DNA of 48,442 bases from an uncultured Candidatus Saccharibacteria bacterium (lineage in GTDB: Bacteria > Patescibacteriota > Minisyncoccia > Phycocordibacterales > Phycocordibacteraceae). Both the position numbers and the translations under genes were made by a program. Positions 15,926-46,675 of the stretch are shown here, piece after piece (the stretch's first letter is position 1; each line of letters opens with the position of its first letter). The stretch lies in the NCBI GenBank assembly GCA_964364605.1, contig CAYIMJ010000001.1, forward strand, positions 1-48,442, written 5' to 3'. Below the pieces are notes generated by a model. It did no database searches. It was given only the letters and a program-made list of their open reading frames with translations, and was not told the DNA's origin.

Positions 15926-16447
15926 CTACTGGGTTGAGTCATTGTACATCTTTCGTGCACGCTCGTATGCAGCCTCTGCCGCCGAACGTCCCTCGAAGTC
16001 ACCAACTGAGACCTCTTTCTTCTGAATCTGCTTATACGTAGCGAAGAAGTGTGCTATTTCCTTGAGCACGTGCTGGTTCGCATCCTTAATATCTTTCACA
16101 TCCGCGTACCGAGGATCACCGGAGGCAACTGCAATAACTTTTTCATCTGCTTCGCCGCCATCGATCATATGCATGATGCCTACCATGCGTACCGGGACGA
16201 GAATGCCGGGTGCAAGCGGATGCGTAGTCAGCACGACAACATCAAGAGCGTCGCCATCATCCCAGAGTGTCTGCGGCACGAAGCCGTAGTCAAAAGGGTA
16301 GTCCTGCGCGCTGTGCATGACCCTGTCGAGCTTGATAACTCCTGTCTTCTTATCAATCTCGTACTTATTGTGAGAACCTTTCGGAATCTCAATGATGACA
16401 TTCACCTCTTCTTTTGTTCCCGGATCAATATCGTGCAAAAGATTCAT
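15926..16447 (-). CDS. ppa: inorganic pyrophosphatase (family I)
   Basis: VIIEIPKGSHNKYEIDK..LDRV...YPFDYGFVPQTL.DDGDALDVVVL. Confidence 0.95.
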   Translation of the reverse strand: MNLLHDIDPGTKEEVNVIIEIPKGSHNKYEIDKKTGVIKLDRVMHSAQDYPFDYGFVPQTLWDDGDALDVVVLTTHPLAPGILVPVRMVGIMHMIDGGEADEKVIAVASGDPRYADVKDIKDANQHVLKEIAHFFATYKQIQKKEVSVGDFEGRSAAEAAYERARKMYNDSTQ

Positions 16448-16526
16448 CCCGTTAGAAATTAGTTTAATAAAGCATTGCTTGTTTTATTTTACACCCCCCC
16501 CCGACAATCTCGCCATTTCTAACGGG
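16448..16526. mobile_element. family-A inverted-repeat mini-element (79 nt) abutting the ppa start codon
   Basis: Arms CCCGTTAGAAAT (16448-16459) and ATTTCTAACGGG (16515-16526). Flanked by the direct repeat ATTCAT (16442-16447 and 16527-16532), which is ATGAAT on the gene strand. Contains a C9 tract at 16494-16502. Confidence 0.75.
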
Positions 16527-16560
16527 ATTCATATGCATCGATTATACATCACTGATACTT

Positions 16561-22278: not shown

Positions 22279-24027
22279 ATGCACGTTTCGGAAGGGGAGC
22301 TGAAAGAATTCATCATCGACTCCGGTCTCGTCGTGAAGAAGGAGATTGATGCTGCAAGCGAAGAAGCCGTAAAGAAAGGTCAGTCGCTTGGCGATATACT
22401 CGTCTCGCGAGGATCGTTGACCGAAGATGCTCTGCGGCGCATCCAAGCGTACGTACTTGGGATTCCGTTTGTAAATTTAAAAGAGCATCGTGTCCCTGTC
22501 GATGTGCTCGCACTCATCCCAGAACCAATCGCACGCACGCACAACATCATTGCGTTCCGAAAAGAAGGAGATTCGCTCGAAGTCGCAATGCTTGACGTTG
22601 AAGATCTCGCTTCTATCGACTCTGTACGTAAAAAGACTGGCCTCAAGATATTATCACGATTGACCGATACGGAAAGTATCAAGTCAGCGCTCCTGCAATA
22701 TCAGAAGTCACTCAAAGATGAGTTCGGCGACATCATATCGACCGAGGCAGGGAAAATCCGTGCTGTTTCTGCAGGCAATAAGGACCTTTCGGGCGACGAA
22801 CTCAAGAAAATGGCTGAGGACTTACCGATCGTGCGCATCGTCGACACGCTTTTGCGGCACGCTATCGTTCAGGGTGCTTCCGACATTCATATCGAGCCTA
22901 TGGAGAACGAGGTACTCGTGCGCTATCGCATCGATGGCATCCTGCACGATGCAATGACGCTTCCCAAGCCAGCTGCTGCCGGTATCGTCGCGCGCATCAA
23001 GGTGCTCTCCAACCTAAAGCTCGACGAAAAACGCCTACCGCAAGACGGTCGTTTCAAAATGGAGACCGATGCAGATCGAGTTTCTTTCCGTGTCTCAATG
23101 CTCCCGACATTCTTCGGCGAGAAAACCGTGATGCGTCTTCTGCGCGAAACAGGGGAGGGCTTCACGCTCGATGCGCTCGGACTCCATGGGGAAAATATGG
23201 AGCGCATCCATCACGCTCTGAAGCAGACGACTGGCATCATCCTCATCTCGGGACCGACAGGCTCTGGAAAAACGACGACGCTTTACACGATGCTCGATAT
23301 CCTGAATCAACCGGACGTGAATATTTCAACCGTCGAGGATCCTATCGAGTATCAGATGAAGCGCGTCAATCAGACGCAAGTTAACCCAGAGATAGGGTTC
23401 ACCTTCGCCAACGGACTCCGATCACTCGTGCGCCAAGATCCAGACATCATCATGGTCGGCGAAATTCGCGACAGCGAGACAGCTTCGCTCGCGATCAATG
23501 CCGCGCTCACCGGCCACCTCGTACTCTCGACTATTCACACGAACAGCGCGGCAGGCGCCATACCTCGCCTTATTGATATGGGCATCGAGCCATTCCTCCT
23601 CGTTTCTACTATCCGCGTTATCGTAGGACAACGCCTCGTACGCAAACTCATCGAAAATAAAGAGCCATATTCGTTGGACAAGGCCGTGCGCGGGAAAATC
23701 GCGAGCGAAGAAGATTTTAATGCCGCATTCAAAGCTCTTGAAGACGAGAAGCTCGTCAGTAAAGGAGCAACGCTCGACACGATTCCTTTTTATCGACCAG
23801 TGGCATCATCTGAGTCTGAAGATGGCTATCGAAGTCGTATCGGCATCCATGAAGTGCTTGCTGTTTCGCCGGCCATTCGCGAAACCATCCTCCGATCAAG
23901 CACGAGTGACGCTATTGACGCACAAGCGAAAAAAGAGGGGATGCTTACGATGTTTCAAGATGGTCTCTACAAGGCTGCGCGCGGTATCACGAGCATTGAA
24001 GAGGTCCTGCGTGCGATAACTGAATGA
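22279..24027 (+). CDS. pilB: type IV pilus assembly ATPase PilB (GspE family)
   Basis: The N-terminal MshEN-like domain, Walker A GPTGSGKTTTLY, Asp/His boxes (VGEIRD, TGHLVLSTIHTN). ATG 22279 (MHVSEGELKEF) is preferred over GTG 22228. Confidence 0.93.
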   Translation: MHVSEGELKEFIIDSGLVVKKEIDAASEEAVKKGQSLGDILVSRGSLTEDALRRIQAYVLGIPFVNLKEHRVPVDVLALIPEPIARTHNIIAFRKEGDSLEVAMLDVEDLASIDSVRKKTGLKILSRLTDTESIKSALLQYQKSLKDEFGDIISTEAGKIRAVSAGNKDLSGDELKKMAEDLPIVRIVDTLLRHAIVQGASDIHIEPMENEVLVRYRIDGILHDAMTLPKPAAAGIVARIKVLSNLKLDEKRLPQDGRFKMETDADRVSFRVSMLPTFFGEKTVMRLLRETGEGFTLDALGLHGENMERIHHALKQTTGIILISGPTGSGKTTTLYTMLDILNQPDVNISTVEDPIEYQMKRVNQTQVNPEIGFTFANGLRSLVRQDPDIIMVGEIRDSETASLAINAALTGHLVLSTIHTNSAAGAIPRLIDMGIEPFLLVSTIRVIVGQRLVRKLIENKEPYSLDKAVRGKIASEEDFNAAFKALEDEKLVSKGATLDTIPFYRPVASSESEDGYRSRIGIHEVLAVSPAIRETILRSSTSDAIDAQAKKEGMLTMFQDGLYKAARGITSIEEVLRAITE

Positions 24028-25247
24028 CCATGAAATTTCGGGTTACCGTACGGAAAGAGGGTGCACCAGACCAAATACGCAACATCGAAGCATCGTCACG
24101 CTTCGATGTATACCATCAGATAAATAGTGAAGGCAGTTCCGTCACTTCAATTGAAGAGCTGCGCGGATTTAATCTTGATACCCTATCCCGCTTTAATATA
24201 TCGATCGGTACGGGAATAAAGCGTGTTGAAATAATCCGCACTGCAAAAAATGTGTCCGCGATGCTCTCCGCTGGCCTTTCCATTTCTCGTGCGCTTTCTA
24301 TCATTGAACGCCAATCAAGCAACAAGCATTTTAAGACAATTGCTGCCGGCCTTTCTGAATCAATAAAAAAAGGCTCCTCCTTTCACGAAGCTCTTACTGC
24401 CTACCCGAAAGTATTTCCCGAGATATTCGTCGCCATGGCGCGAGCAGGAGAGGAGTCAGGCTCCTTAGCTGACTCTCTTACTGTCGTCGCTCTCCAGATG
24501 GAACGTTCCGAGGAGTTAGTACGGAAAATCAGAGGCGCGATGATTTATCCGGCTATCGTTGTCACCGCAGTGATCATTGTCGGTATCCTCATGCTCATCT
24601 ACGTCGTACCGACCCTGACGAGCACCTTTACCCAGCTCGGGGTACAAGTACCGCTCGCCACACGAATGATTGTCGCGTTGTCGGATTTCATGGTCGCTCA
24701 TGTCGAACTTGTCCTCCTGGCAATCACTATAGGAGTGATAGGCGGCACTACATTCTTCCGATCGAGAATAGGGGGCAGGATAGTGCTGGCGTGTGCTTTG
24801 TATATGCCCGTTATAAATGAGCTCGTACGCGAGACGTATACTGCCCGAGCCTCTCGTACGCTCTCCTCACTTCTCTCTGCCGGCGTACCCGTACTTGAGG
24901 CTCTCTCCATCACCAAAGAAGTGGTGCATGCGGAGGCATTTGCGAAAGTGGTCGAGGAAGCAGAAGAACATGTGAAAAAAGGGGAGCCTCTTTCCACATC
25001 ATTTTCTGAACATGCGAAACTCTATCCAATTTTAATGAGCGATATGCTCGCAGTGGGGGAAGAGACCGGTAAAGTCGCCGAGATGCTTAAACAAATCGCG
25101 GAGTTTTATGAAGAAGATGTCGGTCAAAAAACAAAAGATCTTTCGACTATCATCGAGCCAGTCCTCATGCTCGTTATCGGAGCCTTTGTCGGCGTCTTTG
25201 CAGTCTCGATGATTGCACCGATTTATTCGCTCTCATCGGCTATATAA
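24024..25247 (+). CDS. pilC: type IV pilus platform protein PilC (GspF family)
   Basis: Two GspF repeats (SAGLSISRAL..., SAGVPVLEAL...) and three TM segments. ATGA overlap with the pilB stop. Confidence 0.92.
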   Translation: MTMKFRVTVRKEGAPDQIRNIEASSRFDVYHQINSEGSSVTSIEELRGFNLDTLSRFNISIGTGIKRVEIIRTAKNVSAMLSAGLSISRALSIIERQSSNKHFKTIAAGLSESIKKGSSFHEALTAYPKVFPEIFVAMARAGEESGSLADSLTVVALQMERSEELVRKIRGAMIYPAIVVTAVIIVGILMLIYVVPTLTSTFTQLGVQVPLATRMIVALSDFMVAHVELVLLAITIGVIGGTTFFRSRIGGRIVLACALYMPVINELVRETYTARASRTLSSLLSAGVPVLEALSITKEVVHAEAFAKVVEEAEEHVKKGEPLSTSFSEHAKLYPILMSDMLAVGEETGKVAEMLKQIAEFYEEDVGQKTKDLSTIIEPVLMLVIGAFVGVFAVSMIAPIYSLSSAI

Positions 25248-27572: not shown

Positions 27573-28316
27573 ATGCTTATTGTAGCCAACTGGAAGGCAT
27601 ACGTAGAAGATTTAGGAAAAGCAAAGAAACTCCTTGCCGTAAGCAAGCGGCTCGCGCGCACGACTTCGTGCGATATTGTGCTTGCTCCGCCGTCGCCACT
27701 TCTCGGAGCGCTCGCGGTGCGTAATAAATCAAAAGTTGCTTTCGCGACGCAAGACGTCTCTCGAACGACAGGGGGAGCGAAGACTGGGGAGTCGACCGCT
27801 GAAGCCTACGCAGCCATCGGGGTAATGTATGCGATCCTGGGACATTCCGAGCGCCGAGCGCTCGGCGATACGGAACAAATAATTGCTGAGAAAATCGCGC
27901 ATGCACTCGCTCACGGACTCACGCCCATCCTCTGTGTCGGCGAACATGAACGCGACGGGGAAGGACACTATCTCAGCTATGTGCGTGAAGAACTTACTTC
28001 TGCAATCGGATCACTCACGCCAAAAGAGCGCTCGAAAGTCATTGTCGCCTATGAACCTCTCTGGGCCATCGGCAAGACAGCTGCCGAAGCAATCCAGTCG
28101 AACGATCTTGCAGAGATGGTGTTGTACATCCGGAAAGTGCTCTCGGAACTCCTGCCGGGGAAAAGTTCGCGACAGACGCTCGTGCTTTATGGAGGATCAG
28201 TCGAACCGGGAAATATCCGCGGACTTGCAGGCGACTCAAATGTTGACGGATTTCTTGTCGGTCATGCTTCGGTAGATCCGGTTGCATTCTCGCTTCTTGT
28301 AAAACAACTTGCCTGA
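27573..28316 (+). CDS. tpiA: triosephosphate isomerase
   Basis: IVANWKA, ILGHSERR, CVGE, VAYEPLWAIG, YGGSV. Confidence 0.95.
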   Translation: MLIVANWKAYVEDLGKAKKLLAVSKRLARTTSCDIVLAPPSPLLGALAVRNKSKVAFATQDVSRTTGGAKTGESTAEAYAAIGVMYAILGHSERRALGDTEQIIAEKIAHALAHGLTPILCVGEHERDGEGHYLSYVREELTSAIGSLTPKERSKVIVAYEPLWAIGKTAAEAIQSNDLAEMVLYIRKVLSELLPGKSSRQTLVLYGGSVEPGNIRGLAGDSNVDGFLVGHASVDPVAFSLLVKQLA

Positions 28317-28324
28317 TAATGCGT

Positions 28325-28438
28325 CCCGTTAGAAATCACGAACACGTCTATCAAAGTGATCACGAAACGTTATGGACCGCAGTAACAAAATAAAATATGA
28401 CACCCTTTATGCGACGTTCGTATTCTATTTCTAACGGG
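28325..28438. mobile_element. family-A inverted-repeat mini-element (114 nt) between the duplicated pgk start codons
   Basis: Arms at 28325-28336 and 28427-28438. Flanks are ATGCGT (28319-28324) and ATGCGC (28439-28444). Confidence 0.75.
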
Positions 28439-29599
28439 ATGCGCAGCGTCCGCGACATCCGACTATTCGAGAATATTCCGATACTCGTTCGGACGGCGCT
28501 CAATGTCCCGATTGAAAATGGGAAAGTCGTCAACGACTACCGATTACGACGCGCACTGCCAACCATTAGATTTCTTTCCGAACGAGGTGCGAAAGTCATT
28601 CTCATCAGCCACATCGGAGAGCAGGGGACTGAGACACTCGAACCGGTTGCGCAAGCTCTCGGGAAACTCATATCCCGAGTCTCGTTCTTCGGTGAGACCA
28701 TCGGGGAGCGGGCCCGAGGAGCCATACGGGAACTTTCGCCAGGAGGCATCCTGGTACTTGAAAATCTCCGCCGCAATAAAGGTGAAGTGATGAATGATCG
28801 AGCCTTCACCAAAGAACTTGCGGCGCTTGCTGACGTCTTCGTTCAAGATTCTTTTGATACTTGCCACCGTCGTCACGCCTCAATCATCGGTGTTCCTGAA
28901 TTATTACCAAGTTATGCCGGACTCCTTCTTGAGGAAGAGATCGAGGAACTTTCGGAAGCGCTCATGCCGAAGCATCCGGCGCTTGCAGTTATCGGCGGAG
29001 CGAAATTCAGCACGAAGGAAGCAGTGCTTACTACGCTTCTCAAAACATATGATCATGTGTTTGTCGGCGGAGCACTTGCCAATGACTTCCTGAAAGCGGC
29101 GGGACAAGGGGTAGGGAAGTCGCTTGTTTCAGGAGCTGACTCAGACTCTATTAAAAAACTTCTCACCAATCCTAAACTGGTATTACCCGTAGACTCGTTT
29201 GTCGTTCCAGCAACGAGCATCGGCGCTTTGAATACGAAAATGAACGCGCGCGTCGCAACTGCCGGACAAGTACGGCCCGATGAAGTCATTCTCGATCATG
29301 GTCCCGGCACTTCAGCACTCTTAGCTAACCTTGCCGAAAAAGCGAAAAATATTCTCTGGAACGGCCCCTTGGGAAATTACGAGCACGGCTTTGTAGATGC
29401 AACCAATGCTTTCGCGCGCGCGGTCGCAGACTCGGGAGCGCACTCGGTCGTCGGCGGCGGCGACACTATCGCAGCGATAGAGAACCTCGGCCTTCTTCCG
29501 CACTTTTCTTTTGTCTCGACTGGCGGCGGCGCCATGCTCGACCTCCTCGCAAAGGGAACTCTTCCCGGCATTGCAGTACTTGACAAAACACACAACTAG
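28439..29599 (+). CDS. pgk: phosphoglycerate kinase
   Basis: MRSVRDIRLFENIPILVRTALNVP..ISHIG...ENLRRNKGE..GGAKFSTK..GGGDT. The conserved N-terminus begins at ATG 28439. In-frame ATG 28397 would add the element-encoded peptide MTPFMRRSYSISNG. Confidence 0.93.
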   Translation: MRSVRDIRLFENIPILVRTALNVPIENGKVVNDYRLRRALPTIRFLSERGAKVILISHIGEQGTETLEPVAQALGKLISRVSFFGETIGERARGAIRELSPGGILVLENLRRNKGEVMNDRAFTKELAALADVFVQDSFDTCHRRHASIIGVPELLPSYAGLLLEEEIEELSEALMPKHPALAVIGGAKFSTKEAVLTTLLKTYDHVFVGGALANDFLKAAGQGVGKSLVSGADSDSIKKLLTNPKLVLPVDSFVVPATSIGALNTKMNARVATAGQVRPDEVILDHGPGTSALLANLAEKAKNILWNGPLGNYEHGFVDATNAFARAVADSGAHSVVGGGDTIAAIENLGLLPHFSFVSTGGGAMLDLLAKGTLPGIAVLDKTHN

Positions 29600-30487: not shown

Positions 30488-32284
30488 ATGTTCCCACTCC
30501 ACGATCCGCTTACTGAACCTCTACGAGCAGAACTTGCATCGTATGACGATCTCACTGCCGCGTTGCTTTCGCGCCGCGGTATCCTGACTAAAGAAGACGC
30601 TGAGAAATTTCTCAACCCCTCCTACGAAGGTCACCTATATGACCCATTCCTGATGACTGACATGAGAAAAGCCGCGGAGCGATTTGCGGCGGCGATTCTC
30701 TCGGGAGAAAAAATTGCAGTATGGAGCGACTACGATTGCGATGGTATTCCGGGTGGCGTACTCCTCCACGATTTCCTCGCGAAAGCTGGTGCGAATTTTG
30801 AAAATTATATTCCGCATCGACATGAAGAGGGGTATGGCATGAATGTGAGTGGAATTGAGAAGCTTGCAAAGAGCGGAGTGAAACTCATCGTGACAGTCGA
30901 CTCTGGTATCACCGATATCGAACCTGTTGCCCGGGCGAAAGAACTTGGCATGGACGTCATCGTAACCGATCATCATTTGCCGGGAGAAAAATTACCAGAC
31001 GCTTTTGCGGTCGTTAATCCTAATGCTCGTCCCGTTAGAGACAAGATGTTGTCAGCATCTGGCTCGCCGGAGGCGAGCGTCTCTAACGGGACAAGTGCCG
31101 ACGAAACGTATCCGTTTCGCAGTCTCTGCGGCTCAGGGGTCGCGTGGAAACTCGTCTGCGCGACTCTCGCGATTGCACCAACTCTTCGCGAGAAGGTACC
31201 CGTCGGATGGGAGAAGTGGCTCCTTGATATGGTCGGTCTCGCAACCATCGCTGACATGGTTCCGCTTGTCGATGAGAATCGCGTTCTCGCGACGTATGGA
31301 TTGAAAGTAATGCGGAAGTCGCCACGCATCGGGCTACAAAAAATGTGCCGCGGAATGCGTGTGGATCAGCGTGCGATTACCGAAGACGACGTCGGGTTCA
31401 TGATAGCCCCGAGAGTGAATGCCGCGAGCCGGATGGGGGACGCACGCGATGCGTTCCGTCTCTTCACGACGACCGATGAAAACGAAGCTGATGAACTCTC
31501 AAAGAAAATGGAGAAGGCGAACCGTCAACGGAAAGCAGAGGCGGGCGCTATCACGCGCGCGGTACACACACGACTCAAGGAACGCGGGGAGGTGCGAAGC
31601 GTCATCGCACTCGGAGATCCCGAGTGGCGCCCGGCGCTTCTCGGTCTTGTTGCAAACACGATTGCTGACGAGTATGAGCGTCCGGTATTTTTGTGGGGAA
31701 GGGAAGGGAACATGCGTCTGAAAGGATCAGTGCGGAGTGGCGGCACGACGCATATTATGGAACTCATGCGCGCGGCAGAAAAAGCATTCGTCGAATTCGG
31801 CGGACATGCGGCGGCGGGCGGTTTTGCCGTCCACGACACTGAAGTATTTTTTCTAGAAGACCGACTCGTCGAAGCACATGCAAAAATACTGGAAGGAAAA
31901 ACCGCTGAAGACAGTCTGGCGATGCGTGCCGATGCGCACATCACACCGGAAGAAGCGACGACGTCATTTCTTTTCAAAGTCGAGAAGCTCGCACCCTTCG
32001 GTCAGCAGAATGCGAAGCCAGTGTTTCTGCTTCGCGAAATTATCGTGCGAGAGATTTCACGCTTCGGAAAAGGGGAGGAGCATTTGAAATTGAAAATAAC
32101 TTCCGTCGAAGGTACTGGACGAAGTGTCGAAGCGGTTACGTTTTTCGTAAAAGGATCGATCGCCCGTGCAGCGGAGAAAATCTCTGCGGGTAGTCGCGTG
32201 AACCTACTTGCACACCTTGAGCGCGACACCTTCTCGCGCGGGAATCCGGTGCGCCTGCGACTTCTCGACATCAAATTGATATGA
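30488..32284 (+). CDS. recJ: single-stranded-DNA-specific exonuclease RecJ
   Basis: DYDCDGI, VTVDSG, VTDHH, GSGVAWKL, IADMVPL (DHH/DHHA1 motifs). Confidence 0.93.
   Translation: MFPLHDPLTEPLRAELASYDDLTAALLSRRGILTKEDAEKFLNPSYEGHLYDPFLMTDMRKAAERFAAAILSGEKIAVWSDYDCDGIPGGVLLHDFLAKAGANFENYIPHRHEEGYGMNVSGIEKLAKSGVKLIVTVDSGITDIEPVARAKELGMDVIVTDHHLPGEKLPDAFAVVNPNARPVRDKMLSASGSPEASVSNGTSADETYPFRSLCGSGVAWKLVCATLAIAPTLREKVPVGWEKWLLDMVGLATIADMVPLVDENRVLATYGLKVMRKSPRIGLQKMCRGMRVDQRAITEDDVGFMIAPRVNAASRMGDARDAFRLFTTTDENEADELSKKMEKANRQRKAEAGAITRAVHTRLKERGEVRSVIALGDPEWRPALLGLVANTIADEYERPVFLWGREGNMRLKGSVRSGGTTHIMELMRAAEKAFVEFGGHAAAGGFAVHDTEVFFLEDRLVEAHAKILEGKTAEDSLAMRADAHITPEEATTSFLFKVEKLAPFGQQNAKPVFLLREIIVREISRFGKGEEHLKLKITSVEGTGRSVEAVTFFVKGSIARAAEKISAGSRVNLLAHLERDTFSRGNPVRLRLLDIKLI
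31029..31092. mobile_element. family-A variant inverted-repeat element inserted in-frame in recJ
   Basis: Arms GTCCCGTTAGAGAC (31029-31042) and GTCTCTAACGGGAC (31079-31092). The core 31031-31090 is 60 nt (20 codons), encoding PVRDKMLSASGSPEASVSNG between the conserved NPNAR and YPF..L.GSGVA. There is an inner hairpin gctcgcc-gga-ggcgagc. Confidence 0.7.
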
Positions 32285-34365: not shown

Positions 34366-35901
34366 ATGAGCTATCTCATCGCCATCGTGTCGGGATTCGC
34401 GAGCGGAGTATTTCTCCGCTCGGTTTTTAGTTTTGGATGGCCAGTAATCTGTTTCGTACTTTTGCTCGCCACGATTCTTTTTGCAGTCCCGAGAGTACTT
34501 GCCGTTCATCCTGCGTACACGCTTGCCCCGTTAGAAATCAGATTTCTAACGGGGCTTGGCGCGGCTTTCTGTATTTTTCTTGCCCTCGGTATGGTGCGAA
34601 GCTCACTCGCCGAGACTCCCTTGCCCGACATCTTCGCAAAAGATCTGCGACATCGCGTTTCCTACGAAGGAGTCATTGTCTCCGATCCTGATGTGCGCGA
34701 CGCGAATCAACGCGTTGAAATTCGTGTGTCAGAAAAAGGTGAGTCGACGACTATGCTCGCGGTCGCACCGCGATATCCGAGAGTTATGGTTGGTGATCGT
34801 GTCTATGTCTCAGGCACACTTCTTGTCCCTGAAGCATTTCTCGATGAGAACGGTCGTGTCTTTCGTTATGATAAATATTTGGAGCGCAGTGGTGTGCGTT
34901 TCATTCTAAACTTTGCATATCTGCGTGTCATCGAGAAAGCTCCTTGGTATTCGATACCAGCTTTACTCGCACGAATAAAACATTCATTCCTCGACGGCCT
35001 CTCGACCACACTGCCTGAACCGTATGCCTCACTTGCTGGCGGTGTCGTGATAGGAGGGAAGTCCGGTCTCGGAAGCGAGCTCAAAGAGGTATTCATTCGC
35101 TCAGGTCTCGTACAGATAATTGTTCTGTCCGGCTATAACGTCATGATCGTTGCTGAGTGGGTCATGGCCGCGCTCACATTTACCAAGCTCAGGAAGCGGT
35201 GGGCGGCAGTGGCGGGTGCGTTTGCAATCCTTATCTTCATCGGTGTCGCAGGAGCTTCCGCGACAGCACTTCGCGCCGCGCTCATGGCATTCATCGCACT
35301 CTATGCGCGAGCAACCGGCCGCACGTATGCAGCTGGTCGCGCATTACTGCTCGTCGTATTTCTCATGCTCGTGTGGAATTCTCTCTATCTCGTTTTTGAT
35401 CCAGGCTTCGGACTCTCGGTAACCGCAACCGCAGGACTCATCTGGCTGGCGCCCCTCATCGAAATCATATTTGCTTTCATGAAAAACGCATTCTGGAAGA
35501 ATGCAATTGCGACAACTCTCGCTGCACAAATCGCTGTCCTACCGCTCCTTTTATATGACACTGGGAACCTATCGCTCGTCGCGCTCCCTGCGAACTTGCT
35601 CGTGATGCCTGTTGTGCCTATCGCGATGGGACTCTCCGCATTTGCCGGTTTCGCAGGAATTATTTTCGGAACATTCGCCCCCATGTTTGCCGTCATGCTT
35701 GCACTGCCGGCATACCTTGCGAATGCGTATCTGATATTCATCGCGCAAGAATCTGCCGCACTGCCTTTTGCGGCTTTTACGCTTCCGTTATTCCCGTTCT
35801 GGCTTGTACTCGCTGCCTACGCGGCACTTATTTATTTCGCTTCATCAAAACGCTTCTCGACAACGCTCCAGTTGAGATTCGCAAAAAAGGCGTCAACATA
35901 A
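34366..35901 (+). CDS. comEC: ComEC/Rec2 competence channel protein (DUF4131 + Competence domains, no MBL domain)
   Basis: OB-like DUF4131 region (YEGVIVSDPDVRDANQRVEIRV..GDRVYVSGTL), then a polytopic region with GLVQIIVLSGYNV, GASATALRAALMA. Confidence 0.85.
   Translation: MSYLIAIVSGFASGVFLRSVFSFGWPVICFVLLLATILFAVPRVLAVHPAYTLAPLEIRFLTGLGAAFCIFLALGMVRSSLAETPLPDIFAKDLRHRVSYEGVIVSDPDVRDANQRVEIRVSEKGESTTMLAVAPRYPRVMVGDRVYVSGTLLVPEAFLDENGRVFRYDKYLERSGVRFILNFAYLRVIEKAPWYSIPALLARIKHSFLDGLSTTLPEPYASLAGGVVIGGKSGLGSELKEVFIRSGLVQIIVLSGYNVMIVAEWVMAALTFTKLRKRWAAVAGAFAILIFIGVAGASATALRAALMAFIALYARATGRTYAAGRALLLVVFLMLVWNSLYLVFDPGFGLSVTATAGLIWLAPLIEIIFAFMKNAFWKNAIATTLAAQIAVLPLLLYDTGNLSLVALPANLLVMPVVPIAMGLSAFAGFAGIIFGTFAPMFAVMLALPAYLANAYLIFIAQESAALPFAAFTLPLFPFWLVLAAYAALIYFASSKRFSTTLQLRFAKKAST
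34526..34554. mobile_element. minimal family-A element (two arms plus 3-nt loop) inserted in-frame in comEC
   Basis: CCCCGTTAGAAAT-cag-ATTTCTAACGGGG, flanked by the direct repeat CTTG (34522-34525 and 34555-34558). Translated as PLEIRFLTG. Confidence 0.75.
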
Positions 35902-39371: not shown

Positions 39372-39385
39372 TGCGATATATGGAT

Positions 39386-39497
39386 CCCGTTAGAAATCGC
39401 GAACGCTGCAATCGAGGAATGGATCCAATTATAAGCTCTAATCGGATAGGGTTCGGCTGCACCGCATCTGGTGTGTCCGCGCCCTATTTCTAACGGG
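39386..39497. mobile_element. family-A inverted-repeat mini-element (112 nt) between duplicated start codons of the DUF3467 gene
   Basis: Arms at 39386-39397 and 39486-39497. Flanks are ATGGAT (39380-39385) and ATGGAC (39498-39503). Confidence 0.75.
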
Positions 39498-39755
39498 ATG
39501 GACTTCAACAAAATCCCCAAGCAATTCTGTGAAAATGTCGTCGCAGGGCACTCCGAAGAAAATTTCGTCATGATTATGAGCGTCGGCGAAACAGCCAATG
39601 CCTACGCACTCACGCCGCCACACATGAAGCGACTCGTGCAGAGCCTCAATCATCAAGTCGAGGAGTATGAGAAAAAGTTTGGCCCTATTCAGGCAAAGTG
39701 GACCCCGGGCATCGAAAGTCCCCTCCAATCGAAAGACATCCGGGGCGATAAGTAA
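39498..39755 (+). CDS. DUF3467 family protein
   Basis: MDFNKIPKQFCENVVAGHSEENFVMIM......LTPPHMKRLVQSLNHQVEEYEKKFGPI fits the DUF3467 pattern. Confidence 0.75.
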   Translation: MDFNKIPKQFCENVVAGHSEENFVMIMSVGETANAYALTPPHMKRLVQSLNHQVEEYEKKFGPIQAKWTPGIESPLQSKDIRGDK

Positions 39756-44900: not shown

Positions 44901-45896
44901 ATGCGTCTCAATCTCCTTACTGCCTCTGCTCTACTTATTCTCATCCTGCCTATCTCTGTCTCAGCGCAATCCCTGGAAAACTCGGCCGGAGATGCGCCCT
45001 TTACAGTCTCAGTAAATCCCCAATACCCGGCACCCTACAGCCAAGCAAGTTTATCCTTCCTTTCAGCCTCTCTTGATCTCACAAATGCGCTGCTCGCTGT
45101 CTCAGTTGCTGGTAAGGAGACCTATCGAGGAACGGTCCAGCCAGTCGGAATCACTCTTGGTAAAGCAGGGAGCGCTACGAATGTAAAAGTGACGATTTCT
45201 TCGGGCGGAGTAAATTATACTCAGACAATTTTTATACAACCCCAGGATGTGGCGATTATCGCTGAACCAATCTCTTCGGCCCCGCCTCTCTACCCAGGAA
45301 CGCCCCTCATACCGCTTGAAGGAAGCGTGCGAGTGGTCGCGGTGGCGAACCTGAGAGACGCAAGAGGGAAGACTCTCGACCCATCGACACTGTCGTACGC
45401 ATGGACGGTCGATACTACACAGATCGCAAACTCATCAGGTATCGGCAAGATGGCAATCATGGTCGCTTCGCCGCTCCAATACCGCGCTCGTTCAGTCTCA
45501 GTTGCAGTTACGAGCCAGAACGGGAGTCTTGTCGGAGGGGCGTCGCTCTCACTCACTGCCAAAGAACCCTTAGTACGTATCTACCGGAATGACCCTCTAC
45601 TCGGCATCCGTTTCAACCACGCCCTCTCGGGAGAATATCCCATCGCCGGCGCAGAGACGGCTCTCTATGCCGCACCGTTCTCACTACCAACTGCCGTCGG
45701 CGCACCACTCCTCCAGTGGTTCTTAGACGGTAGTCCCGCACAGACAGGGAATGCGATAACACTTCGCCCTACGGGAAGCGGCCAAGGGAATGCCTCCCTG
45801 TCGCTCGTAGCATCTGCGGGAAATTCCACGACAGCAACCGCAAACCTATCACTTTCCTTCGGTGCAAAACCGGGCTTTAATATATTCGGCCTATGA
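44901..45896 (+). CDS. secreted hypothetical protein
   Basis: Signal peptide MRLNLLTASALLILILPISVSAQS. TATACT lies 6 nt upstream of ATG. Confidence 0.65.
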   Translation: MRLNLLTASALLILILPISVSAQSLENSAGDAPFTVSVNPQYPAPYSQASLSFLSASLDLTNALLAVSVAGKETYRGTVQPVGITLGKAGSATNVKVTISSGGVNYTQTIFIQPQDVAIIAEPISSAPPLYPGTPLIPLEGSVRVVAVANLRDARGKTLDPSTLSYAWTVDTTQIANSSGIGKMAIMVASPLQYRARSVSVAVTSQNGSLVGGASLSLTAKEPLVRIYRNDPLLGIRFNHALSGEYPIAGAETALYAAPFSLPTAVGAPLLQWFLDGSPAQTGNAITLRPTGSGQGNASLSLVASAGNSTTATANLSLSFGAKPGFNIFGL

Positions 45897-45898
45897 GT

Positions 45899-45976
45899 CC
45901 CGTTAGAAATTCAAAACAATATATGGGTATTAAAAATATGTCGCAACAGGAGCACTCTGACTCTATTTCTAATGGG
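45899..45976. mobile_element. family-A inverted-repeat mini-element (78 nt, open in frame) at the 5' end of the pilin-like gene
   Basis: Arms CCCGTTAGAAAT (45899-45910) and ATTTCTAATGGG (45965-45976). ATGAGT lies upstream and GTGATGA downstream. Confidence 0.7.
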
Positions 45977-45979
45977 GTG

Positions 45980-46675
45980 ATGAAAAAAATAATACTCATG
46001 TCGAGCCTCTTTCTGCTTCTCGGATTCGCTCCGCATGTGCTAGCCCAAGGCGGATTCGTCCCTCTTGCACCTATTCCTGGCCTTACGGAAGGTGTGGCAG
46101 CAGACGAAGCAGGTCTCGCTAATTTCTTTAATAATCTCTACAAATACCTCATCGGTCTCGCCGCGACACTCGCTGTTATTGAGATAATTTGGGGAGGGCT
46201 TCAAATATCAACTCAGGACTCGGTCAGCAAACAGGGTGAGGGCAAAGAACGCATCCAGGAAGCAATCTTCGGCCTCGTGCTTGTTCTCTCGCCAGTCCTC
46301 GTCTTCTCCATAATCAACCCAAGCATTCTAAATCTCTCTCTCAACCTCCCGCCGATTGATACGACAGTAGCTCCGACACCCAGTGGGACTACATTGGCTG
46401 GTCCTACACCAGATAGTGCTACCGATATAATACAAAGCAACCAAAAATATACGGATCGATTTTATAAATGTTTGGACACTAGATGTGATGGGGCAAAAAA
46501 GTCGTGTAGTAATGACCCCCAAGCCAAATACCAGATTGAGAAATATATGTCCGTTGTGTGCTTTAAAGACGGCTCTATCGATCCAAAGGGAAGAACTTGG
46601 TTCTCTCTGGTTCCCTTTACCGATTATACGTGCGATGGTGGCGGAGTTCCGCACATTAAATGTATTATGAAATAA
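45980..46675 (+). CDS. TrbC/VirB2-like T4SS pilin candidate with Cys-rich C-terminal domain
   Basis: MKKIILMSSLFLLLGFAPHVLAQG signal peptide, then two hydrophobic helices (LYKYLIGLAATLAVIEIIWGGL; AIFGLVLVLSPVLVFSII). The upstream in-frame ATG 45893 would add 29 element-encoded residues. Confidence 0.6.
   Translation: MKKIILMSSLFLLLGFAPHVLAQGGFVPLAPIPGLTEGVAADEAGLANFFNNLYKYLIGLAATLAVIEIIWGGLQISTQDSVSKQGEGKERIQEAIFGLVLVLSPVLVFSIINPSILNLSLNLPPIDTTVAPTPSGTTLAGPTPDSATDIIQSNQKYTDRFYKCLDTRCDGAKKSCSNDPQAKYQIEKYMSVVCFKDGSIDPKGRTWFSLVPFTDYTCDGGGVPHIKCIMK

Follow-up and report, generated by a model that had tools for sequence, protein, structure and literature searches.

How a gene that would be translated by ribosomes arriving from its upstream neighbour could stay expressed after a hairpin has been inserted exactly at its start codon is the question raised by the junction of tpiA (triosephosphate isomerase) and pgk (phosphoglycerate kinase, PGK) in a groundwater bacterium. 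The junction lies in a stretch of 48,442 nucleotides (nt), referred to here as the window (GenBank contig CAYIMJ010000001.1, positions 1 to 48,442), which is filed under an uncultured Candidatus Saccharibacteria bacterium; the contig originates from the 0.2-µm fraction of Hainich groundwater, and the relatives of its PGK are labelled Kaiserbacteria or Paceibacterota. A preliminary description proposed that an inserted element had replaced the direct coupling of pgk to tpiA by a relay through a short upstream open reading frame (uORF). Our comparison of related sequences shows that the 120 extra bases are an insertion, into what was, with good support, a coupled junction, and a translational relay is statistically supported for the family of elements to which the insert belongs. 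The open reading frames (ORFs) and start codons of the junction are listed below; the tpiA stop, uORF1, ATG 28397 and ATG 28439 all lie where the preliminary description had placed them, and ATG 28319 and ATG 28439 are indeed 120 nt apart.

27573-28316, plus strand: tpiA, from the ORF list (Pfam TIM, E 1.8e-60), with the stop TGA at 28314-28316.
28319-28321, plus strand: old pgk start codon (left copy), 2 nt past the tpiA stop (TGAtaATG), the putative ancestral coupled junction.
28319-28393, plus strand: uORF1 of 24 codons (MRPVRNHEHVYQSDHETLWTAVTK), which opens at the old start and stops at TAA 28391-28393.
28372-28434, plus strand: alternative 20-codon ORF, for which the TAA of the right arm of the element is the stop, 4 nt before ATG 28439.
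28397-28399, plus strand: in-frame ATG, 3 nt past the uORF1 stop and 14 codons (MTPFMRRSYSISNG-M...) before the canonical start.
28439-29599, plus strand: pgk from its canonical start, an ATG directly after the right arm, whose A is the last base of the element and whose TG belongs to the right duplication.

The long ORF from ATG 28397 to 29599 (400 amino acids, aa; Pfam PGK, E 9e-106) corresponds to an N-terminally extended PGK (MTPFMRRSYSISNGMR), and the Pfam PGK profile starts at its residue 24. We take ATG 28439 to be the ancestral pgk start because about 110 of the 120 closest PGK homologues, mostly 382-387 aa long, begin with MR[ST][VI]RDI, the N-terminus that matches this codon.

A scan of one genome per species provided 70 related pgk loci, and the upstream regions were compared for 58 of them. 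About 50 of these 58 junctions are free of the element and consist of the tpiA stop, 2-8 nt and the pgk start, mostly ATGCG (e.g., tcaTAAcaATGCGCACC in L065 and gcgTAAgcATGCGCAGC in L005), which bears out the earlier proposal that pgk was once coupled to tpiA through TGAtaATG; unrelated longer spacers are present in a few related loci. The element occupies the identical nucleotide in eight genomes, i.e., those of the window, L006, L007, L010, L196, L197, L198 and L199, L006, L007 and L010 belonging to the 58 loci compared and the last four being further filled sites taken from homologues whose called N-terminus ends in ...SISNG-M. The comparison with related junctions, which the preliminary description had proposed as a check, thus shows a predominance of empty sites, and the objection that the segment could be an ancestral spacer fails. 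The chance that the 120 nt represent such a spacer or an RNA with a lineage-specific regulatory role in the tpiA-pgk operon is practically negligible: the common position and the conserved ends in eight genomes would fit it, but the empty junctions include those of the closest relatives L065, L005 and L008 (PGK identity 81-82%), the filled sites are interleaved among empty ones on a neighbour-joining tree of PGK, and the same ends enclose unrelated sequences at many other loci. Moreover, no interior covariation was found among the eight pgk copies (term -0.08; compensatory changes in 2 of 28 pairs), their closing stem being invariant and hence uninformative in this respect, and there is no Rfam match, since the gathering score of Rfam 15 is reached in the whole window by four tRNAs only and the sole match to 28250-28500 at E up to 10 is a chance one (E=5) to a eukaryotic long non-coding RNA model. 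The tree, which is based on a single protein and has short internal branches, cannot separate repeated insertion from recombinational spread or repeated precise loss. In L052, the tpiA-pgk spacer (at about 110 nt upstream of pgk) has no arms, but GTTCGTGTA ... GATCACGAACAC within it are subterminal motifs of the pgk element with their order inverted, and it may be a decayed or rearranged copy.

The inserted segment is composed of the following parts.

28324-28439, unstranded: hairpin element of 116 nt resembling MITEs (miniature inverted-repeat transposable elements), T-CCCGTTAGAAAT...ATTTCTAACGGG-A, with an interior of the 'type A' subfamily.
28320-28323, unstranded: left copy of the duplication, TGCG, identical to the TGCG at 28440-28443.
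28440-28443, unstranded: right copy of the duplication, TGCG, identical to the left one.
28325-28336, plus strand: left arm CCCGTTAGAAAT, read as P V R N in the uORF frame and containing TAG in one other frame.
28427-28438, plus strand: right arm ATTTCTAACGGG, read as I S N G in the pgk frame and containing TAA 28432-28434 in one frame, 4 nt before ATG 28439.

The arms belong to an inverted repeat of 16 nt (28321-28336 and 28427-28442) that is 94% complementary, and the insertion target at pgk was A-TGCG-C. While the insertion proposed in the preliminary description stands, its size of 114 nt plus 6 nt has to be corrected, as the flanks of copies across the family give 116 nt plus 4 nt, from T 28324 to A 28439. 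The 12-nt arm CCCGTTAGAAAT has 16 matches with up to two mismatches in the window against 3.5 expected, a number reached in 0 of 100 shuffles, and five to six family copies are present within these 48 kb. Scanning metagenomes for the two arms at a spacing of 40-100 nt gave at least 120 contigs; the metagenome matches listed and the related genomes together contain at least 164 paired copies, which are the basis of all counts out of 164. Arm positions 0-11 are conserved to 96-100% over 310 element ends, with a sharp drop after position 12, and just outside the arms stands a complementary pyrimidine/purine (Y/R) pair, which is C..G in 108 of the copies and T..A in 49 others, so that an end comprises 13 nt, the 12-nt core and this pair. 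A perfect 4-nt direct duplication flanks 101 of the 164 copies (15 expected), mostly TAAA/TTTA, TGAA/TTCA, TCAA/TTGA, TGCG or TGGA, with the general form T-N-N-A/G. In a recurrent class with the flanks ATGAAC...GTGAAA, the right-hand start opens with another base than the left one, and this base complements the one in front of the left arm. The terminal purine is hence part of the element, and so is the A of the pgk ATG.

The copies are 27-134 nt long, apart from a few longer or nested ones, and are located at start codons, a short way upstream of ribosome-binding sites, or within genes, where they are in frame. Where an open frame spans the copy, the added length is a multiple of three in 11 of 13 cases. 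Two subfamilies are sizeable, type A with 16 copies of 112-118 nt and a 93-nt type with 28 copies. With terminal inverted repeats, a 4-nt target duplication, empty sites (pgk, recJ), small size, many copies and no transposase gene, the family has the sequence hallmarks of a MITE-like non-autonomous mobile element, which we consider it to be; a shared interior was not found. Nested or side-by-side copies, which are typical of active mobile DNA, occur at L130 1276-1385, L131 6800-6897, L174 5590-5761 and 7140-7405, and L091 1075-1332.

The consequences of such insertions for translation can be followed across the family. Seventy copies lie directly before an ORF that starts with the regenerated ATG or GTG, and 53 of them keep a start codon in the left duplicate. 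An SD-like (Shine-Dalgarno-like) motif precedes this left start in only 3 of 52 copies; a -10-like hexamer TANNNT is present in 20 of 52, with a peak 6-9 nt upstream of the left start and about 22 occurrences at 5-9 nt compared to an estimated background of 5-6. Given the scarcity of the former and the frequency of the latter, many target genes are probably leaderless, and the rest, like pgk, are probably coupled to an upstream stop. The long ORFs of the window have an SD-like motif in 3 of 43 cases and TANNNT 5-9 nt upstream of the start in 15 of 43 (e.g., ggagTATACTtacgaaATG before the HIT gene and ggggTATACAatagctctcacATG before recJ), both values being rough, as the first start codon of the longest ORF was used. 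This suggests that leaderless mRNAs predominate in this Kaiserbacterium, which would rely on leaderless or coupled initiation. After insertion the old start codon would then be the sole entry point for ribosomes, in leaderless and coupled targets alike.

From this left start, the frame runs through the element without a stop in 28 of 53 copies, compared to 10.0 ± 2.7 in shuffled sequences with a maximum of 20 in 2000; the other frames are stop-free in 10 and 7 copies (sense) and in 9, 17 and 9 copies (antisense). Thirteen of the 28 open frames end in TAAcgggRTG, nine in an RTGA overlapping the new start and six in an in-frame fusion, and when the fusion class is excluded, 22 of 44 are still open. 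The type-A copies at start codons have one orientation to the downstream gene in 15 of 15 cases, representing about 10 independent sites, and their frame is open in 9 of 15 in the actual orientation versus 3 of 15 if flipped; the pgk copy is antisense to the type-A consensus, like every type-A start-codon copy. On account of the excess of open frames and the fixed orientation of type A, we read insertion survival as a selection for elements that ribosomes could traverse from the old to the new start.

For the pgk copy, we propose that before the insertion the gene had no ribosome-binding site of its own and would have been translated by ribosomes terminating on tpiA (TGAtaATG). A MITE-like element with 13-nt terminal inverted repeats and no coding capacity would have inserted into A-TGCG-C, leaving the old start attached to tpiA and rebuilding a second ATG 120 nt downstream from its terminal A and the duplicated TG. 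In the mRNA, the ends would pair into a 16-bp stem, burying the new AUG 28439. Ribosomes released at the tpiA stop could restart at AUG 28319, translate the 24-codon uORF and thereby melt the closing stem, stop at UAA 28391 and then either restart at AUG 28397, which would give PGK with 14 additional residues, or scan to AUG 28439. The predicted structure agrees with this course of events: the segment 28305-28460 has a minimum free energy of -41.2 kcal/mol (z -2.7), and the consensus fold of the eight pgk copies (RNAalifold) is closed by a 16-bp stem that does not vary and that pairs AUG 28439 (A-U, U.G, G-C) and also the G of the old AUG; a further 6-bp helix is predicted as well.

A complete chain of ORFs is present in all eight pgk copies, the arms of which are invariant except for one base in L006; their subterminal segments are conserved, and their interiors fall into two subtypes. 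In contrast to the majority class of the family, these copies contain internal stops. The window and L196 have in common a uORF of 24 codons, TAA, 3 nt and an in-frame ATG 14 codons upstream of the canonical start, the L196 uORF having the same length and the same stop position as uORF1 of the window. L006 has a chain of three ORFs, and all five subtype-2 copies have an 11-codon uORF1, a gap of 13 nt and a 22-codon uORF2 that ends at the TAA of the right arm, 4 nt before pgk; the 3' end of ORF 28372-28434 in the window resembles this uORF2. The relay at pgk is therefore plausible as a layout conserved between relatives, but its two-step form is not distinguishable from chance, and the arrangement cannot be claimed as selected because multi-step chains are no commoner than in shuffled sequences. 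Of the proposal in the preliminary description that expression would need reinitiation through an element-encoded peptide or an extended PGK, the family-wide open frames (28/53) thus support the general part, and the specific two-step chain at pgk does not exceed the shuffles. On balance, we favour the relay as the most likely route to PGK at this copy and hold this view, together with the N-terminus that it would imply, with moderate confidence.

Several observations weigh against this interpretation. The stop of the uORF lies 45 nt before the canonical start, so two steps are needed, and family-wide there are 12 multi-step relay chains compared to 16.6 ± 3.2 in shuffled interiors. The eight pgk copies represent two interior lineages and are not independent. 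The variable sites of uORF2 are distributed over codon positions 1, 2 and 3 as 4, 8 and 9 (hand count), without third-position bias, and therefore only the openness of the frame, not the peptide, could be under selection. AUG 28397 is predicted to lie in an unpaired A-rich loop and would be usable directly without a relay. As to the element itself, no autonomous element with these ends was found in the loci examined (about 1.9 Mb), a search there around unpaired arms for arm pairs 0.3-4 kb apart with up to three mismatches giving none, and interiors that are mostly unrelated, 110 of 164 being singletons at stringent clustering, are unusual for a MITE family.

The accessibility of AUG 28397 leads to the first competing route, direct internal initiation at this codon in the apical loop, which would require neither an SD sequence nor tpiA or the uORF and would likewise yield PGK with 14 additional residues. 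In the minimum-energy fold the stretch with CAGUAACAAAAUAAAAUAUGACACCC is unpaired and AUG 28397 is in the A-rich apical region; six of the eight copies (window, L006, L196, L197, L198 and L199) have an ATG in the pgk frame that precedes the canonical start by 13-15 codons, and as SD-like motifs are so rare in the window (3/43 ORFs), SD-independent initiation must be common. However, L007 and L010 have no in-frame ATG and yet an intact pgk, the genes without SD here mostly look leaderless, a mode that needs a 5'-terminal and not an internal AUG, and the family excess of stop-free frames from the left start would be left unexplained. We therefore regard direct initiation as unlikely, though it should be kept in mind.

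Neither AUG 28439 nor AUG 28397 is preceded by an SD-like sequence, there is no terminator-like site within 28300-28450 between the adjacent and co-directional tpiA and pgk, and the only promoter candidate inside the pgk element is a weak 9/12 match, ATGACA-18-TATTCT at 28397-28426, which is not above chance (2 found versus 1.4 expected) and is not conserved in the other interior subtype. An internal promoter with a ribosome-binding site, which the preliminary description had named as the finding that would make pgk independent of upstream translation, was thus not detected in the form of either an SD-like motif or an above-chance promoter. These results bear on the possibility that pgk is uncoupled from tpiA and read as a leaderless or short-leader gene from a new 5' end, created by an RNase III cut of the closing stem or by an internal promoter. 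The perfect 16-bp stem with the additional 6-bp helix is a plausible substrate for a double-strand RNase, and PMC12641178 names RNase III as one of the factors of ribosome biogenesis that it discusses for these bacteria; the ATGACA-18-TATTCT match would start transcripts about 5 nt before ATG 28439, and leaderless-type starts appear common in this genome. On the other hand, the -10 reads TGTTCT in the five subtype-2 copies and lacks the key A at position 2, the arms carry no TANNNT hexamer at the right distance, and both variants leave the open left-start frames and the fixed type-A orientation unexplained, which makes a new 5' end improbable in our view.

The geometry of the hairpin also invites the idea of a shunt, in which ribosomes, either those terminating at the tpiA stop or those with a tRNA held on the first codons, would pass over the folded hairpin to the second AUG-CG at its foot and leave the element untranslated. 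The stem juxtaposes 28323 and 28440, the flanks are direct repeats with AUGCG on each side, and the tpiA stop is only 7 nt (28317-28323) before the stem base. In the known bypassing of phage T4 gene 60, the gap is about 50 nt, the take-off and landing codons match and a stop directly follows take-off. At pgk, the gap is 120 nt and the take-off codon is followed by CCC instead of a stop, and the open frames across the family speak for an interior that is read, not skipped, so we give a shunt hardly any credence. A bypass of the gene 60 type is ruled out by CCC after CGT and by the 120-nt gap, although CGT and CGC could share a tRNA.

A different kind of copy is found in tRNA genes. The arms enclose a complete tRNA-Pro(TGG) gene at L188 525-631 and L093 628-735. 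In L188 the block, bordered by a C and, at its other end, by GTGAAGG, interrupts a tRNA-Lys(CTT) gene precisely at the boundary of positions 37 and 38, and deleting block and borders gives a canonical 76-nt cloverleaf with a CCA end; when the corresponding deletion is made in L093, the outer gene is not recognised as a tRNA. The L188 block lacks a 4-nt duplication, and through its flanks the arm helix continues into the anticodon stem, the intron-side GUGAAGG pairing with the anticodon loop. At L158 5349-5441, a copy with the duplication TGTA follows base 9 of a tRNA-Pro gene and leaves the gene intact, for the element end ...CGGG-G and the duplicated TGTA recreate the tRNA 5' end (CGGGGTGTA); this tRNA gene is preserved in the way start codons are, by an element end and a duplication that rebuild the sequence.

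A functional tRNA-Lys in L188 would require that its insert is taken out, and the same kind of repair could then apply to the pgk mRNA. Such an RNA-level removal would mean that the arms are recognised by a processing and ligation activity which restores UGAuaAUGCGC in the mRNA. The restoration of the tRNA-Lys cloverleaf by deletion of the tRNA-Pro(TGG) block, the conservation of the arm sequence across very different interiors and the scarless excision that 4-nt repeats would allow are in line with this. Yet the open uORF frames matter only if the element stays in the mRNA, and the same is true of the added multiples of three in 11 of 13 open-frame copies, comEC included, and likewise in the in-frame recJ-type ones; a perfect 12-16 bp helix does not have the two 3-nt bulges of the archaeal splicing motif, which a 4-bp helix separates, and Rfam gives no match. 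We consider RNA-level repair of pgk very improbable, and to the same very small degree we allow that the 13-nt ends are sites for an RNA cutting-and-joining activity and the elements a new kind of bacterial intervening sequence. The archaeal bulge-helix-bulge intron is ruled out by the continuous 12-16 bp stem without bulges and by in-ORF copies that are multiples of three.

The other copies in the window illustrate the range of insertion sites. A 79-nt copy, whose arms bracket 16448-16526 (site 16447-16527), stands directly before the minus-strand gene ppa (inorganic pyrophosphatase, 15926-16447) and downstream of nusA. Its flanks read ATGAAT...ATGAAT in gene orientation, with a TATAAT box 8 nt upstream of the left ATG, which suggests that ppa is a leaderless gene with a duplicated start codon; this copy has a 22-codon uORF, which ends 16 nt short of the new start. 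Type-A copies with ATGAA flanks are located in L006 (115 nt) and L052 (116 nt) before an ORF of ppa-like size, 172 codons in L052 and incomplete at the contig end in L006, a candidate ppa in both. A 112-nt type-A copy, whose arms bracket 39386-39497 (site 39385-39498), separates the gene of an M50 peptidase from a DUF3467 gene; it is flanked by ATGGAT...ATGGAC, has a -10-like TATAGT 7 nt upstream of the left ATG and contains a single 37-codon uORF from the old start to the right-arm TAA (TAAcgggATG), and it appears to be the cleanest one-step relay arrangement in the window. A 78-nt copy (arms bracket 45899-45976, site 45898-45977) is situated at the ATGA overlap of PBP-C-like and T4SS-pilin-like genes; as it keeps the frame and has no stop, it lengthens the called protein 45893-46675 by 28-29 element-derived residues, and the GTG-ATG-AAA-AAA that follows looks like the original signal-peptide start.

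Two copies lie inside genes, both at sites that are empty in most relatives. The recJ gene (30488-32284) carries a variant copy at 31031-31090 with the arms CCCGTTAGAGAC and GTCTCTAACGGG, which adds 22 residues (PVRDKMLSASGSPEASVSNGTS) in the region of the DHH domain; the in-frame copies of this type add 60+6 nt in recJ and 36+6 and 60+6 nt in relatives. The recJ insertion is shared by L007, L013, L196 and L198 and absent from L010, which has the pgk copy; hence copies have been gained and lost at the two sites independently of each other. In comEC (34366-35901), the arms of a minimal 27-nt copy bracket 34527-34553 (site 34526-34554) and enclose only a CAG loop; with its CTTG duplication (27+6 nt), it keeps the frame within the N-terminal membrane region of ComEC. 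L013 and the phage contig L074 have an identical 27-nt form, and a 36-nt variant is at the same comEC position in L004. A single arm with one mismatch (CCCGTTATAAAT) at 24807-24818, inside ORF 24024-25247 and with no partner within 1.3 kb, is probably a chance match.

The 93-nt subfamily has C..G ends (e.g., L114 12734-12826, L141 1434-1526 and L193 6229-6321) and an interior with two GC-rich hairpins, each followed by a T-rich stretch, which is terminator-like in either direction; its copies are inserted at GTAAAC...GTAAA sites. In several copies with GTAAAC-type flanks (e.g., L192 and L186), the right flank continues straight into an SD sequence (GTAAAGGAG). The IMG/VR contig IMGVR_UViG_3300038429_000794 (L074, L075) contains three copies of 78, 27 and 81 nt and encodes a Mu-type transposase, an AAA protein, Gam and GemA, as in a Mu-like phage; phages may thus spread the family between hosts. 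Our literature searches found no description of the family: the left-arm string was returned only from an unrelated carrot paper and the right-arm string from nowhere, and searches on MITEs in Patescibacteria or the candidate phyla radiation and on leaderless translation in Patescibacteria gave nothing on it.

Among known systems, the mycobacterial interspersed repetitive units (MIRUs) are, by analogy, the closest precedent. In the portions of PMC3184786 that concern them, MIRUs are described as small repeats located between the genes of a polycistronic operon and bordered, where the site is filled, by direct repeats of four nucleotides; the sites are empty in relatives, and the repeats have imperfect terminal inverted repeats and short ORFs overlapping the stop and start codons of their neighbours. 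The likeness to our elements extends over a length of roughly 40-115 nt, an intergenic position in operons, tetranucleotide repeats, empty sites and, in part of the family, ORFs abutting neighbouring genes. Supply et al. reportedly argued in 1997 that the ORFs of MIRUs point to translational coupling and that the repeats follow the orientation of their operon. A fixed orientation is shared by 15/15 type-A start-codon copies, and the ORF feature by the 28 of 53 family ORFs that reach TAAcgggRTG, RTGA or a fusion; the pgk ORF abuts the tpiA stop but ends 45 nt short. Unlike MIRUs, our elements have perfect 13-nt inverted ends, mostly unrelated interiors and a terminal purine completing ATG or GTG, many of their targets look leaderless instead of operon-internal, and they are not arranged in tandem as MIRUs often are. 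As phylum and ends differ, we claim an analogy of function, not membership.

Bacterial MITEs are characterised, in the part of PMC3184786 dealing with them, by terminal inverted repeats, target duplication, lack of a transposase, multiple copies, long RNA hairpins and co-transcription with neighbouring genes. The family has the same hallmarks as MITEs in general, such as Correia/NEMIS of Neisseria, Nezha of cyanobacteria and MITEAba12. Correia elements have a TA duplication and 26-bp repeats, in contrast to the 4-nt duplication (T-N-N-A/G) and the 13-nt repeats found here, and typical MITEs share interiors, whereas most interiors here are singletons and a parent insertion sequence was not found. 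Rickettsia palindromic elements (RPEs; Ogata et al. 2000), as far as they are covered in PMC3184786, are palindromic repeats located in frame inside genes and translated. The recJ (22 extra residues) and comEC copies resemble them in being in frame, although the sequences are unrelated and the pgk copy is located where a gene begins, not inside the protein. RPEs are, to our knowledge, not known to regenerate start codons. The passage on Neisseria REP2 in PMC3184786 describes a repeat immediately upstream of genes that contributes a translational start, whereas our element contributes a single base to the start codon, its first, and has neither a recognisable promoter nor a recognisable ribosome-binding site.

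In operons, classical coupling by termination and reinitiation takes place at stop/start overlaps such as ATGA or TGAnnATG. TGAtaATG, TAAcgggATG, RTGA and the TAAaatATG at 28391-28399 resemble these, but at pgk the coupling was interrupted and would have been re-established via an element ORF whose translation unwinds a stable hairpin. Repetitive extragenic palindromes (REP/REPIN), which are GC-rich, short, without target duplication and mobilised by a RAYT transposase whose gene they flank, are ruled out by the clear 4-nt duplication and by the lack of long-range arm pairs enclosing a gene, and integron attC sites by the reversed polarity (GTTAGAA first, TTCTAAC last) and a misfit of the seventh base to RYYYAAC/GTTRRRY. 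The family is set apart by the combination of 13-nt ends with free interiors, a purine that completes the start codon, a built-in TAA 4 nt upstream of it and leaderless-looking targets.

Although no principle is overturned by these results, as MIRUs already provide a precedent for coupling ORFs in intergenic repeats, they have practical and biological implications. Gene callers set the pgk start at 28397 and thereby add 14 element-derived residues, likewise in four other assemblies, and knowledge of the element would let such starts be corrected across Patescibacteria. Because the interiors are mostly unrelated and one is a whole tRNA gene, the data suggest that anything between two 13-nt ends can be moved. 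The insertions amount to a natural experiment, in which reinitiation and 5'-end-dependent initiation face a structured insert of 70-120 nt. A selfish element survives here on the most sensitive nucleotide position of a gene, since its last base and the duplicated TG rebuild the start, and the copies that persist would be those that ribosomes can read through.

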